The position numbers were made by a program, and so were the translations under genes. This document shows, in pieces, positions 36,161-48,669 of a DNA stretch of 64,000 bases; positions within the stretch are counted from its first letter, which is position 1, and every line of letters starts with the position of its first letter. The DNA is from Escherichia coli (lineage in GTDB: Bacteria > Pseudomonadota > Gammaproteobacteria > Enterobacterales > Enterobacteriaceae). The DNA is taken from assembly GCF_003991155.1 (NCBI RefSeq), contig NZ_CP031293.1; one strand, 5' to 3'. The notes below the pieces were generated by a model. That model had not been told where the DNA came from and did no database searches. It was given only the letters and a program-made list of their open reading frames with translations.

Positions 36161-37083
36161 CGCTGGCGATTGACAAAACGGCGGCGCTGCTCGTCGTTCA
36201 TAAAGGTCCAGGCTATAAAGCGGCTCTGCTTTTGCCCCTGGGCCATCTCTTTTTTGACCACTTTCACCGCGCCCACGTCCGTCAGAGCACGATACAACGG
36301 CGGTAAGTTTTCGCCACGAGATACCAGCGAGGTAAACCACATCACCTGCTTCGCGAAGCCTTTGCTCTCTTCAATCATCTTTTTAATAAAAGCGACTTCA
36401 CCGCCTTCACACCACAACTCCTGTTGCTGACCACCAAAATTCAGTGCATCGTCTTTGTTTAGCCCCAGGTTACGGCGTTTACGTTCACTACCTGCCCGTG
36501 CCGCAGCGGCGGAATCGTGGAATGGCGGGTTACACAAGGTCGCGTCGTATTGCTCGTTTTTATGGATGATGCCGTTAAAAATCGCCCCACTCTCTTTTTG
36601 CCGACGCAGACGAATGGCGCGGTTAAGCCCCGGATTAGCACTGATGATCGCCTGCGCACTGCTTAACGCCTGGCTGCTGGTTTCACTACCAGTAAAACGC
36701 CAGCCATATTCATGTACGCCAATCAGCGGATAAATACAGTTCGCACCAACGCCGATATCCAGAATGCTGGCATTAGCTGGAATTGATCCTGTTGCTTCTG
36801 CCAGTAAATCGGCAAGGTGATGAATATAATCCGCCCGGCCCGGTACTGGTGGGCAGAGAAAACCGTCGGGGATATCCCAGTTCGCTACGGCGTAAAAATG
36901 GGCCAGCAACGCCTTATTGAGCGCCTTCACCGCCAGCGGATTGGCAAAGTCTACGCTTTGCTCCCCGGCGGGTGTAAGCGTGAGGAATTGCCTGAGTTCA
37001 GGATTGACCTGACAAAGTGTGGCGAGATCGTAGCTGCTGTGATGACGGTTGCGCGGATGCAACCCCGGTTTCTGGGCGGACAT
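36157..37083 (-). CDS. rlmF: 23S rRNA m6A1618 methyltransferase RlmF (start at [12 protein letters not shown])
   Basis: SAM-dependent methyltransferase; its 3' end overlaps the convergent ybiO stop by 4 nt. Confidence 0.88.
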
Positions 37084-43115: not shown

Positions 43116-44078
<963 letters not shown>

Positions 44079-44105: not shown

Positions 44106-46256
44106 TTAACGCCGCCGACGGCGTGGGGATTTCGTTTTTTCTTTCTTTTTAACTATACCTTCAGGGACTTCCGGTTGCTCTATCGGAAATACCGGTAATG
44201 CATCCAGTAGCCGCTTGCCGTAGTTTTTGGTGAGCAAGCGTTTATCGTAAATCACCACTTCGCCCCAGCAACCGTGGCTTCGAATCAGTCGCCCAACCTG
44301 CTGAATCAGGTTAAACGAGGCGCTCGGCAGGCTTTGCACCTCAAACGGATAGCGGTTGAGGCTTTTCAGCCATTCCCCTTCGGTGATCACCACGGGGCTG
44401 TCGATGGGCGGAAAAGCGATTTTGTGGATATGCACCTGGCTGAGCAGATCGCCTTTCAGATCAAGCCCTTCGGCAAATGACTGTAAGCCCACCAGCACGC
44501 TGCGCTCACCGTTGGCGACGCGTTTGCGGTGCAGTTCAACTAAACGGTAACGCGGCTGATCGCCCTGCACCAGCAACATCAGACGTAAATCCGTCACATA
44601 GTCGAGAAAGCGCTGCATCGCCCGTCCGCTGGCAAACAGTACCAACATACCGAGATGTTTTTTGCTCTCCACCTGCTTACGGAAAAAGGCCGCCATTTCG
44701 GCAATATGCTGCTCTTCGTTGTCGAGGGAAGGCTCAACGCGCATCCGGGGAATAACAATTTTGCCCTGTTCGCAGTGGTTAAAGGGGGAATCCAGCGCCA
44801 CAAAACGGTCGCCCGCTTTCTCTTTCAGCCCACTCATCTCCTGCAAACGCGAAAAACTGTTCAGCGAACGCAAGGTTGCGGAGGTAACAATAATGTGCGG
44901 AATACTGCGCCACAGCAGCCTTTCCAGTTGGTCGCTAACACGAATACCCACACAGTGAAACCAGAGATGCAGCTGCCCTTCGCGCTCTTCCCGCGTCGCC
45001 CATTTGGTCACCGGCGCACCGGAAGATTGCGCCAGAGACGCCAGCCGCCAGAGTTTGCTTTGCGCCTCGAACATCCCCAACGCGCGGTTCATCTGCAAAA
45101 TCAACCGATGCAGGCGTACAATGTCATGGCTGCCGGTTTTCTCACTTAAATCGTTAAGAAATAACTCCGCCAGGCCACGCAGCATCTCGGTGAGTTTTGC
45201 CAGCCGCTGGCAGATCTCCAGTACTTCATCAGGCAGTTCGCCCATCGCAAAACGGTGCTCTGCCTCCTGCCCGGCAGGCATGTAGAGGTTGAGAATGTTG
45301 TTTAACGAGGCGATAAGCTCATACAACTCTTCACAATGGGCATTCAAACGTTCAGGGATCGCCAGCGGCGGGATGGTCTTCGGGCGAAACTGCTCCATGC
45401 AGGTAGCGACCAGTTTCGTGAACAAGTCCAGCTGTAGCCGATACCACGGTGCGGTGATTTCTGCACTCATCTCCAGCGCATCCCGCGCCACATCCGGCAG
45501 GTGATGACCTTCGTCCAGCACCAGCAGTAAATTTTTCGGGTCAGGCAATACGGCTTCGCTTTCCATCGCCGCCATCACCAGCGCATGGTTTGCCACCACC
45601 ACTTCCGCTTCCTGAATCTCCCGACGAGCGACAAAAAACGGGCATTCGCGATAGTAATAACAGTTGCGGTTAAGGCAACTGGCCTTGTCGGTGCTCAAAC
45701 GACGCCAGAGATCGTCATCTATAGCGATATCAGTATGATCACGCAGACCATCCCATTTATAAGTGTCGAGATCGCCCTTCAGCTTCGCACAACGTTTTTG
45801 TTCTTCCTGATTGTTCGGCGTCAGTTCGTCGTCAAGAAACGCCAGCAAATCCTGTTGCGTGGGTTCAGTGCTGGCGAGCGCCGTCAGATTACGCGGACAA
45901 ACGTAGCGCCCACGCCCAAAAGCGGCAGTGAATTTAAGATCGGGAATGATCTTTTTCAGCAGCGGTAAATCTTTACTGTAGATCTGATCCTGCAATGCCA
46001 CGTTGGCGGTACTCACCACCAGCGTTTTTTGCTCTTCGCGGGCAATGGCGATGCCAGGGATCAAATAGGAGAGCGTTTTCCCAACGCCAGTGGGGGCTTC
46101 AATCGCCAGATGCCGCCCTTCTTCTCCGGCCAGCGTTTTGGCGACGTCCGCAATCATCTGCCGCTGCGGCGCACGGGGAATAAAGTCGGGGATCTGTTCC
46201 TGAAGCGCCTTATACCAGGCGGCAATTTGCGCTTTAAGCGCGGCGGTTAATGCCAT
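44106..46256 (-). CDS. dinG: ATP-dependent DNA helicase DinG (Fe-S, superfamily 2)
   Basis: 716-aa ORF with Walker A GVGKTLSYL, DEGHH box and Fe-S cysteines. Confidence 0.93.
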   Translation of the reverse strand: MALTAALKAQIAAWYKALQEQIPDFIPRAPQRQMIADVAKTLAGEEGRHLAIEAPTGVGKTLSYLIPGIAIAREEQKTLVVSTANVALQDQIYSKDLPLLKKIIPDLKFTAAFGRGRYVCPRNLTALASTEPTQQDLLAFLDDELTPNNQEEQKRCAKLKGDLDTYKWDGLRDHTDIAIDDDLWRRLSTDKASCLNRNCYYYRECPFFVARREIQEAEVVVANHALVMAAMESEAVLPDPKNLLLVLDEGHHLPDVARDALEMSAEITAPWYRLQLDLFTKLVATCMEQFRPKTIPPLAIPERLNAHCEELYELIASLNNILNLYMPAGQEAEHRFAMGELPDEVLEICQRLAKLTEMLRGLAELFLNDLSEKTGSHDIVRLHRLILQMNRALGMFEAQSKLWRLASLAQSSGAPVTKWATREEREGQLHLWFHCVGIRVSDQLERLLWRSIPHIIVTSATLRSLNSFSRLQEMSGLKEKAGDRFVALDSPFNHCEQGKIVIPRMRVEPSLDNEEQHIAEMAAFFRKQVESKKHLGMLVLFASGRAMQRFLDYVTDLRLMLLVQGDQPRYRLVELHRKRVANGERSVLVGLQSFAEGLDLKGDLLSQVHIHKIAFPPIDSPVVITEGEWLKSLNRYPFEVQSLPSASFNLIQQVGRLIRSHGCWGEVVIYDKRLLTKNYGKRLLDALPVFPIEQPEVPEGIVKKKEKTKSPRRRRR

Positions 46257-46270
46257 GAGAAAACCTGAAA

Positions 46271-46290
46271 TACTGTATAAACAGCCAATA
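46271..46290. promoter_or_regulatory. LexA (SOS) box candidate of dinG, non-canonical (tattggctgtttatacagta on the dinG strand)
   Basis: Plus-strand tactgtataaacagccaata lies 15 bp upstream of the dinG start; it contains CTGT...ACAG half-sites in an unusual arrangement that matches what I recall for dinG. Confidence 0.6.
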
Positions 46291-46426
46291 TTGTGGCATT
46301 TTTCGGTTTTCAGGGGTAATGGTTTTTCTGTTTCTGGAAAGCGGCTCGCAATAACGTTTTCTGGCTGTGGGGTTTTCTCGCAACAGAAGAAACATCATTG
46401 CGTAGTAAAAGACAATGCACGCAGGC

Positions 46427-46708
46427 TTATTGCGCTGGTGGCCATTGCAGGGCGGTATGTAAAACACGCAGTACCGAGAGCGTATCGCCCTCCACTTGGT
46501 AGATCAGCACATAATGCGGCCTGACAACGGCTTCATGTGTACCAGCGACTCGTCCGGCCCGGTACATCTCCGGGCGTTCACAGGCCTGTTCCGCAATGGC
46601 TTCAAATTGATTATCAAGGGCTATTGCCGCTAGCGGATTATCTTTACTGATGTATTCCATGATTTGCTCCCTGTCAGACAGGGACATTGGCTTCCATTCC
46701 AGACGCAT
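46427..46708 (-). CDS. ParE/RelE-superfamily toxin, 93 aa
   Basis: Translation MRLEWKPMSLSDREQIMEYISKDNPLAA...PEMYRAGRVAGTHEAVVRPHYVLIYQVEGDTLSVLRVLH has the ParE-like layout; the start overlaps the upstream gene's stop (TAATG). Confidence 0.75.
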   Translation of the reverse strand: MRLEWKPMSLSDREQIMEYISKDNPLAAIALDNQFEAIAEQACERPEMYRAGRVAGTHEAVVRPHYVLIYQVEGDTLSVLRVLHTALQWPPAQ

Positions 46709-47148
46709 TAATCCCCCTTCAGCAAGGCTTTTTTACGGGCAGCAAATAGACTTTTGGCCTCTTCATGAGAGAGCGCCGGGCGTGGATCGTCAATGGCGGC
46801 CTGTACCTGTTCACGAAACCAGGCGTCATACGCGGCAGCTTCATGAGCTCGTTTTAATGCCTCTGCCCTGTCTGGTCGGGTCGTTTTCTTCTGACCGTCC
46901 GGGTCGTAATGAGAGGCGTCGACTTCAAACCGGGCAATACCAACATCTTTCAGGTAGTTGACAACCGTTTCCAGCCGTTTAAACAAGCGAATTTGCCGAC
47001 TGCGTTGTGCTGCAAGAGGCCGTTCAGTGTGGCCGTATTTCACGGTCAACGACCAGCCTCCCTGGGTGCCAATAACGTGTGCTGCATCCACTACGCCAGA
47101 TTCAACCAGTTTATGTAAGGTTGAGTGATCGATCGTTTCTGGTGCCAT
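46708..47148 (-). CDS. Putative cognate antitoxin / DNA-binding partner of the ParE-like toxin, atypical 146 aa; family unresolved
   Basis: Translationally coupled directly upstream of the toxin. The C-terminal segment (AAYDAWFREQVQAAIDDPRPALSHEEAKSLFAARKKAL) looks like a toxin-neutralising tail; the N-terminal ~90 aa do not show an obvious RHH, AbrB or HTH signature to me. Confidence 0.6.
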   Translation of the reverse strand: MAPETIDHSTLHKLVESGVVDAAHVIGTQGGWSLTVKYGHTERPLAAQRSRQIRLFKRLETVVNYLKDVGIARFEVDASHYDPDGQKKTTRPDRAEALKRAHEAAAYDAWFREQVQAAIDDPRPALSHEEAKSLFAARKKALLKGD

Positions 47149-47304
47149 AATGCGCTAACCTCTTTGTATACGGCATGCAATTTATAATTAAAGATAGCGC
47201 AATTAATAATAAATTGCAGCACCTTAATCGTAAATTGCCCAGGATAAAATTGCGGTAGAAAGAGATTTGTTGCGAATATGCCGGGCATCGCCCGGCATAA
47301 AAGA

Positions 47305-48669
47305 TTACTGCGCAGCGGCAGGTTTACGCGGACGGCGACGGCGTTGTTGTTCGCCTGCCGGTTTGGCATCACCAAGACGACGAGATGTTTTTTCTGCGGG
47401 CTTCGCGCTAGCTGATTTCGCACCACCTTCTCCACGGCGTGGTTGCTGTTGACCGCGACCACCACCTTGCCCACGACCGCCGCCGCCACGTTGCTGGCGA
47501 CCATTCTGGATTGGTTCCGCTTTGATTGACGGGTCCGGCTCATAGCCAGGAATCGCAATGCGCGGGATCTCTTTTTTCAGCAGTTTTTCGATATCACGCA
47601 GCAGTTTGTGTTCATCAACACACACCAGCGACAACGCTTCACCGGTAGCAGCCGCACGACCGGTACGCCCGATACGGTGGACATAATCTTCCGGTACGTT
47701 TGGCAGTTCATAGTTGACCACGTGCGGCAGCTCTTCAATATCCAGGCCGCGCGCAGCGATGTCAGTTGCCACCAGTACACGAATATCGCCCGATTTAAAA
47801 TCAGCCAGCGCACGGGTACGCGCACCTTGCGATTTATTGCCGTGGATCGCCGCACTGCGGATGCCATCTTTATTGAGCTGTTCAGCCAGATGGTTAGCGC
47901 CATGTTTGGTACGGGTAAACACCAGCACCTGCTGCCAGTTCCCTTTCCCAATCATATGCGACAGCAATTCGCGTTTGCGTTTCTTATCAACAAAGTGAAC
48001 ATGCTGGGTCACCTGATCAGACGCGGTATTGCGGCGTGCCACTTCGATTTCCAGCGGGTTGTGCAACAGTTTTTCCGCCAGGGCTTTAATATCGTCAGAG
48101 AAGGTCGCGGAGAACAACAGGTTCTGGCGCTTCGCTGGCAATTTTGTTAACACGCGACGGATATCGTGGATAAAGCCCATGTCGAGCATGCGGTCAGCTT
48201 CATCAAGGACGAGGATTTCAACCTGATCCAGCTTCACCGCATTCTGATGTTCCAGGTCCAGCAGACGTCCCGGCGTTGCCACCAGCACATCAACGCCGCC
48301 GCGCAACTTCATCATCTGCGGGTTAATGCTGACACCGCCAAACACCACCAGCGAACGGATATTCAGGTATTTGCTGTAATCACGGACGTTTTCGCCAATC
48401 TGCGCCGCCAGTTCACGGGTTGGGGTAAGAATGAGCGCACGTACCGGACGACGCCCTTTGGCGTGCGGCTGGCGAGTGATCAGGTGTTGCAACAGCGGCA
48501 GCGTAAAGCCCGCTGTTTTGCCGGTACCGGTCTGGGCGCTGGCCATCAGGTCGCGGCCTTCCAGCACCGCAGGGATCGCCTGCTGCTGAATAGGGGTGGG
48601 TTCACGGTAACCCTGCTCGGCAACGGCGCGCAGGATATCAGGGCTTAAACCCAAAGAATCGAAAGACAT
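47305..48669 (-). CDS. rhlE: ATP-dependent DEAD-box RNA helicase RhlE
   Basis: 454-aa ORF with Q-motif, Walker A (AQTGTGKT), DEAD box and a basic Gly/Arg-rich C-terminal tail. Confidence 0.93.

Follow-up and report, generated by a model that had tools for sequence, protein, structure and literature searches.

The asymmetric LexA operator of dinG and the neighbouring toxin-antitoxin module in an Escherichia coli genome

Is an odd-looking LexA box in front of dinG, next to a ParE-type toxin gene, a feature peculiar to the strain that carries it, or is it the dinG operator already known from E. coli K-12 in a different neighbourhood? This question is raised by 20 bases at positions 46271-46290 of the E. 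coli DNA analyzed here (the window, a single stretch of 64 kb), which read TATTGGCTGTTTATACAGTA on the minus strand, the strand of dinG, and TACTGTATAAACAGCCAATA on the plus strand. The original prediction described these bases as a non-canonical LexA box with half-sites in an unusual spacing, overlapping the dinG promoter and directly abutting a toxin-antitoxin (TA) module from which transcription might run on towards dinG. We conclude that they are almost certainly the LexA operator (SOS box) of the dinG-ybiB operon, that is, the same site that has been characterized in E. coli K-12, and as such already known.

The genes around the site follow one another on the minus strand in the order rhlE, an open reading frame (ORF) of 146 amino acids (aa), an ORF of 93 aa, dinG and ybiB, with rhlE located at 47305-48669 according to the ORF list and annotation. 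Positions 46150-47350 of the window are 100% identical to the E. coli isolate ECCNB12-2 (NZ_CP033635.1), and the RefSeq annotation of this record, together with the ORF, identifies dinG as the gene for an ATP-dependent DNA helicase of 716 aa (44106-46256, minus strand). By annotation, ybiB lies downstream of dinG on the same strand (43116-44078), and its co-transcription with dinG has been reported. From the end of the box at 46271 to the A of the dinG start codon at 46256, the offset is 15, with 14 nt in between, which agrees with the distance of 15 bp that had been predicted. The distance predicted for the adjacent toxin gene was right as well: its 3' end at 46427 is 170 nt away from the dinG ATG and, with the stop codon counted as part of the gene, 136 nt away from the box. 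A probable dinG ribosome binding site, AGG, is located at 46264-46266 (minus strand), 7 nt before the ATG, and corresponds to the conserved columns 25-27 of the ortholog alignment. Elsewhere in the window, an island of ~26.5 kb (about 5700-32200) is located between glnH and glnP and splits the glnHPQ operon as annotated in the identical record. Its gene content includes a tyrosine integrase at one end, fragments of IS elements and of sitA, antirestriction and radC genes, and a yeeU/cbtA type IV toxin-antitoxin pair.

A comparison with the K-12 dinG promoter, named as a check in the original prediction, was run and yielded complete identity: the 99 bp upstream of the dinG ATG are 100% identical, base for base, to those of E. 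coli K-12 (DH10B), at 99/99 positions. The 20-mer is the published "asymmetric" dinG SOS box, which has been experimentally characterized (Lewis & Mount, J Bacteriol 1992, as cited in PMC8265657), and Table 4 of PMC3009722 lists the same 20-mer for dinG among the SOS boxes of UV-induced genes. Known since 1992, the operator appears in every list of E. coli SOS boxes. Furthermore, dinG is listed among the genes with a known SOS box (PMC6590174), ybiB has been reported as a member of the LexA-regulated dinG operon (PMC10123104), and Salmonella dinG has a single box 14 nt from its start and shows 10.6-fold induction by nalidixic acid (PMC8072944). The dinG operator has also been transplanted into the recA promoter, in a study that reports a deviating base pair 18 in this operator, at the outer end of the conserved CAG trimer, and counts dinG, with its low UV ED50, among the early SOS promoters (PMC5999292). 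Thus, LexA binding and damage induction are known from the literature for K-12 and Salmonella, and we infer that both extend to the strain analyzed here. The comparison does not support a site that is strain-specific or linked to the TA module, given that K-12, with ybiA as the neighbour, has the same box within the same 99 bp of upstream DNA.

What, then, makes the box non-canonical? We scored it with a symmetrized position weight matrix (PWM) derived from the sequences of 17 further E. coli SOS boxes (Table 4 of PMC3009722), with dinG excluded. In this leave-one-out setting, the dinG box scores 14.75 bits, at the low end of the range spanned by the training boxes (13.6-28.6 bits), and it is the sole register with a positive PWM score in the dinG upstream region. 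Because of this score and of the assignment in the literature, the operator register is taken to be TTG-N10-CAG, with a right half that follows the consensus (CAGTA) and a left half that has TTG in place of CTG. Chance sites with such a score are expected ~0.2 times per 64 kb and ~3e-4 times per given 100-nt upstream region. Two sites of at least 14.5 bits are present in the 64-kb window, namely, the dinG box and a site within the rlmF coding sequence, and the PWM score by itself would not prove function, given that an equal-scoring site sits inside rlmF. The rlmF-internal LexA-type site (36675-36694, TACTGGTAGTGAAACCAGCA) is a canonical-looking CTG-N10-CAG with 14.8 bits, for which a chance origin is quite possible at the expected frequency.

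The label "non-canonical" is apt. A search of the window for the pattern CTG-N10-CAG gave no match at the dinG box, where the right trimer is CAG and the left one TTG, and a search with the 20-bp LexA consensus, with up to three mismatches allowed, gave no match there either, the site carrying five mismatches. The oddity consists of one wrong base in the left trimer, at a normal trimer spacing of 10 bp. With a hypothetical C at box position 3, the PWM score would be 20.7 bits, a gain of ~6 bits, and the site would be an ordinary SOS box. The dinG box stays among the validated LexA sites despite failing the strict rule, its deviation being the published hallmark of the dinG operator; searches that demand CTG-N10-CAG overlook validated LexA sites such as this one. 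We also counted CTG-N10-CAG in the whole window and found 27 occurrences, against 12.8 +/- 3.4 in dinucleotide shuffles. Because CTG and CAG are very frequent E. coli codons, which dinucleotide shuffles do not preserve, this excess is probably an effect of codon usage and not a sign of LexA sites.

The box is conserved far beyond this strain. Of the 5426 complete E. coli genomes, 5408 contain an exact match to a 28-30-mer that covers the box. The dinG start and upstream DNA were also collected from 80 Enterobacteriaceae species, closely related to one another and including members of Escherichia, Citrobacter, Salmonella, Klebsiella, Enterobacter, Kosakonia and Kluyvera, which yielded 71 distinct sequences. 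Across the 80 species, there is hardly any variation in a block of ~45 bp that starts ~12 bp ahead of the box and extends to the ribosome binding site, whereas the DNA farther upstream varies freely. Within the box, each of positions 1-2 and 4-19 has the same base in 69 or more of the 71 distinct upstream sequences, and position 20 is A in 60 and G in 11 of them. Position 3 (window 46288), for which the consensus base is C, is G in 69 of the 71 distinct sequences and never C; T is found at this position only in Escherichia (E. coli, E. albertii and Escherichia sp. MOD1-EC7003), and A in E. whittamii. The alignment thus indicates that the asymmetry of the operator is family-wide and that the E. 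coli TTG is derived from GTG, and the weak left half-site appears to be maintained across Enterobacteriaceae. Since at least 80 enterobacterial species do without the C in the left half-site, in an otherwise frozen box, the weakness of the operator appears to be kept by selection, perhaps as a trade-off against a promoter element.

The predicted overlap between the box and the dinG promoter is suggested by the reading of the hexamers and by conservation, insofar as two candidate promoters can be drawn and both overlap the box. The first is a candidate extended -10 element, TGcCACAAT (46290-46298, minus strand), suggested by conservation, the last base of which is box position 1. Among the 71 distinct sequences, the stretch (A/G)TGnCACAAT upstream of the box (46290-46299) has an invariant or nearly invariant T, G and CACAAT and a variable n, and the base preceding the TG is a purine in every sequence. 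Under this reading, the transcription start would fall inside the left half of the operator. The alternative candidate, ATGCCA-16-TACAGT (46272-46299, minus strand), comprises a -35 hexamer at 46299-46294, a 16-bp spacer and a -10 hexamer at 46277-46272, with 4/6 matches of each hexamer to its consensus; here, the operator would cover the spacer and the -10 element. A consensus promoter scan with a threshold of 9/12 called nothing at the dinG box, both candidates being below this threshold, and there is no entry for a dinG transcription start in the supplements of the Cappable-seq, Shigella dRNA-seq and SMRT-Cappable-seq studies.

On this basis, we propose that a LexA dimer would occupy the 20-bp site with its two subunits on the right half, ATACAGTA, and on the degenerate left half, TATTGG, respectively. 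Bound LexA would then cover the core promoter, either the end of the -10 element and the start or the spacer and the -10 element, and keep RNA polymerase off. Upon DNA damage, RecA filaments would trigger the self-cleavage of LexA, and dinG would be derepressed. Because one half-site is poor, the operator is expected to be weak, and dinG would therefore be released early, at low damage doses.

LexA might not be the only force that shapes the operator. A second constraint, additive to the repression by LexA, is conceivable, and we put it forward tentatively, as the less probable case. In one variant, position 3, which sits 2 nt downstream of the extended -10 TGnCACAAT, would act as a discriminator contacted by sigma region 1.2, with G as the best and C as the worst base. 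Work attributed to Haugen et al. in 2006 reportedly found that sigma region 1.2 prefers G and disfavours C at the discriminator position. This variant would explain why the C that suits LexA best is never used. In the other variant, GCCAC-AATA-GTGGC, a perfect palindrome in most genera, would be the site of another regulator. A second constraint is favoured by the G at position 3 in 69 of the 71 sequences and the complete avoidance of C, even though C would add 6 bits to the LexA score; it is also favoured by the succession of TG, variable n and CACAAT, with a purine always before the TG, which is the exact conservation pattern of an extended -10 element, and by the invariance of box positions 6-9, which do not follow the LexA consensus. 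However, the sequence is equally compatible with the ATGCCA-16-TACAGT promoter, C would also be kept out if a weak operator were itself selected for, and the sample consists of 80 closely related species. The palindrome itself, a 5-4-5 arrangement from -6 to +8 relative to the box (equivalent to 46283-46297), spans the putative promoter element and the left LexA half, and it is broken in E. coli by the G-to-T change at box position 3. It could be the site of another factor or a by-product of other constraints.

Beyond position -99, the DNA upstream of dinG differs among E. coli strains. The shared dinG upstream block of 99 bp (46257-46355, minus strand) is identical in all E. coli alleles examined, with the junction at 46355/46356. 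Besides the TA module, which is present in the rhlE-dinG interval of 324 of 5426 E. coli genomes (~6%), the interval can contain ybiA in divergent orientation, as in K-12, a truncated ybiA pseudogene, or the type III effector gene espX2, and in all four alleles the transition to the common dinG block falls within the same 5 bp, 95-99 bp before the ATG. On the rhlE side, the last sequence shared with K-12, as seen from the alignment with K-12 and an inverted repeat, is the rhlE terminator hairpin (47277-47299, minus strand); all alleles begin to differ just past this hairpin, and the allele-specific DNA of the window covers 46356-47277. The module had been described as directly abutting the box, which is correct to the extent that it adjoins the dinG regulatory region, but the junction 99 bp upstream of dinG leaves both promoter and operator untouched. 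We also considered whether insertion of the module had altered the dinG promoter, and rejected this idea, given that the junction is at -99 and that the same junction, within 5 bp, is found in three other alleles. The rhlE-dinG interval is a replaceable-cassette site, the fixed boundary of which, 95-99 bp upstream of dinG, delimits the DNA needed for dinG regulation.

The assignment of the module to the ParE type was corroborated by a Pfam match and by the ParE2-PaaA2 complex of E. coli O157 as the closest structure. The toxin gene (46427-46708, minus strand; 93 aa) matches PF05016 ParE_toxin with E = 1.1e-13, above the curated cutoff, and among the chains with a solved structure, ParE2 of E. 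coli O157 comes closest (5cw7_B, E = 1e-6). NCBIfam (RelE_StbE subfamily, mRNA interferase) and RefSeq name the toxin RelE/StbE, whereas Pfam and PDB favour ParE; the sequence thus leaves room for either biochemical target, and gyrase poisoning is a prediction. The antitoxin gene (46708-47148, minus strand; 146 aa) has a stop codon that overlaps the toxin ATG by one base, at 46708, and its product matches PF21217 PaaA2 over residues 104-130 (39.9 bits, cutoff 27) as well as the PaaA2 chains 3zbe/5cw7 in the PDB (E = 2e-4). The N-terminal ~80 aa of the antitoxin resemble ParC-family partition-associated proteins (NF041544, residues 6-83, below the curated cutoff). Annotated as a "hypothetical protein," the antitoxin combines a ParC-like N-terminal domain with a PaaA2-type toxin-neutralizing C-terminus. 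The characterized PaaA2 is described, in PMC8630535, as having no DNA-binding domain and depending on a separate regulator, PaaR2. Relatives of the module, with ~70% DNA identity, are found on Klebsiella, Salmonella and Yersinia plasmids.

Upstream of the antitoxin gene, we identified a probable promoter/operator region of the TA operon (47176-47238, minus strand), with a promoter-like site TTTACG-17-TATTAT at 47234-47206 and inverted and direct repeats of the GCAATTTA type. The repeat cluster includes 16 nt at 94% complementarity and a third copy of the repeat, and the GCAATTTA-type repeats are probably autoregulatory operators. Control of the TA module by the SOS response was also considered and was rejected, the best LexA PWM score in 47141-47300 being 0.99 bits.

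Could transcription of the TA operon nonetheless reach dinG, as the original prediction had conceived? Were the PaaA2-like/parE operon transcribed on into dinG where the TA allele is present, LexA-independent expression of dinG-ybiB would be added. Such readthrough is possible because a terminator scan and folding found no hairpin-plus-U-tract terminator between the toxin gene and dinG. The scan gave one weak 5-pair candidate at the toxin stop, and the candidates in the region were no more numerous than those in shuffled sequences; the hairpin at the toxin stop is about as stable as shuffled sequence (z = -0.18). A stable hairpin is present in the spacer at 46345-46405 (minus strand; -21 kcal/mol, z = -4.1), where it straddles the allele junction, and is followed by AGCCGCUUUCC, not by a U-tract. 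In strain 144, the allele of which is 97% identical, one base of this stem is changed without compensation, and no part of the allele diverges more than this 71-bp stretch. We rejected the 46345-46405 hairpin as a terminator or a conserved RNA element on the grounds of the lacking U-tract, the uncompensated stem change in strain 144 and the divergence of the stretch. One arm of the hairpin falls within the DNA that forms the ybiA leader in K-12. A search of 46100-47500 against Rfam returned nothing credible, the sole match being a miRNA model with E = 0.12.

Readthrough from the TA operon into dinG is further favoured by the arrangement of both on the same strand, 170 nt apart, and by the nature of the two structures in between, a weak terminator-like site at the toxin stop and a stable hairpin that lacks a U-tract; moreover, the weak dinG operator should be a poor roadblock, as can be argued from its early-promoter class (PMC5999292). 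However, promoters of type II TA systems are normally tightly autorepressed, and with operator-like repeats present, a low flux is to be expected, while Rho-dependent termination could act in the untranslated 170-nt spacer. The spacer is also the least conserved part of the allele, which argues against selected coupling, and ybiA, in divergent orientation, or espX2 occupies the same position elsewhere in front of an identical dinG promoter, so that the juxtaposition looks incidental. Taken together, LexA-independent expression through readthrough appears unlikely, and a meaningful contribution of it to dinG expression would be slightly more so. The most far-reaching version, in which, in the ~6% of E. 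coli that possess the module, the unterminated TA operon is read through the weak LexA operator and loss of the antitoxin derepresses the TA promoter and thereby directly raises DinG-YbiB levels, is more doubtful again. If it were true, a predicted gyrase-poisoning toxin would be coupled, without any need for LexA cleavage, to a helicase that resolves conflicts between replication and transcription.

The half-sites singled out in the original prediction deserve separate consideration. The CTGT and ACAG motifs are present (CTGT-TTAT-ACAG), but their spacing is not what makes the box non-canonical: in the TTG-N10-CAG register of the operator, the inner CTGT falls within the spacer. It could be proposed that this inner palindrome (CTG-N6-CAG) is itself functional, with LexA or another protein bound to half-sites at an unusually short spacing. 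In line with this, CTGT and ACAG are invariant in nearly all of the 71 orthologous sequences, and box positions 6-9 (GCTG) are off the LexA consensus and yet conserved, for which LexA contacts alone offer no obvious explanation. Conservation, however, does not separate the inner palindrome from TTG-N10-CAG, because the whole 45-bp block is invariant. Every register other than TTG-N10-CAG is PWM-negative, and the N10 spacing is found in 17/17 of the other E. coli boxes used. In the LexA-DNA crystal structure attributed to Zhang et al. in 2010, the geometry of the dimer is said to fix the spacing of the half-sites. The literature (PMC8265657) assigns the operator as TTG-N10-CAG, and the deviation of dinG has been placed at position 18 of the conserved trimer (PMC5999292), which corresponds to the canonical register. 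A functional inner palindrome is therefore very improbable.

Finally, the site might resemble a LexA box by chance and have no function, as could be argued from a score at the low end of real sites and from the equal-scoring site within the rlmF coding region. This reading is effectively refuted by conservation and the literature, the 20-mer being identical to an experimentally characterized operator, present in 5408/5426 E. coli genomes and near-invariant in 80 species while the DNA farther upstream varies freely, with only ~3e-4 hits expected per 100-nt upstream region.

To the known dinG operator, the present work adds the family-wide avoidance of C at box position 3, the conservation pattern that resembles an extended -10 element, and the cassette polymorphism between rhlE and dinG. 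How the locus relates to known systems can be summarized at four levels. Relative to the K-12 dinG SOS box, there is no difference in the 20-mer, the 99-bp upstream flank, the distance to the ATG or the dinG-ybiB genes that follow; the two differ only beyond -99, where K-12 has the divergent ybiA and the strain analyzed here has the ParE/PaaA2-like TA module on the same strand as dinG. With the canonical gammaproteobacterial LexA box, TACTG(TA)5CAGTA, as found at recA, sulA and umuD, the dinG box shares the length of 20 bp, the outer TA...TA, the right half-site ATACAGTA, the 10-bp trimer spacing and the promoter-proximal position, but its left trimer is TTG instead of CTG and its spacer is GCTGTTTATA instead of alternating TA. 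The dinG operators of other Enterobacteriaceae (such as Salmonella, Citrobacter, Klebsiella, Enterobacter and Kosakonia) are embedded in the same block, 13-15 nt before the ATG, and differ in the left half, which is TAGTGG (GTG) in these bacteria, TATTGG (TTG) in E. coli and has ATG in E. whittamii.

The closest known counterpart of the neighbouring module is PaaA2-ParE2 of the E. coli O157:H7 prophage CP-933P (5cw7), with which it has in common a ParE-fold toxin, a PaaA2-type segment and a pair of neighbouring genes in which the antitoxin precedes the toxin. The resemblance is remote (E = 1e-6 and 2e-4), however, and in contrast to the O157:H7 system, the module described here has an additional ParC-like domain of ~80 aa, no separate paaR2-type gene between rhlE and the module, and a chromosomal location at the rhlE-dinG site.
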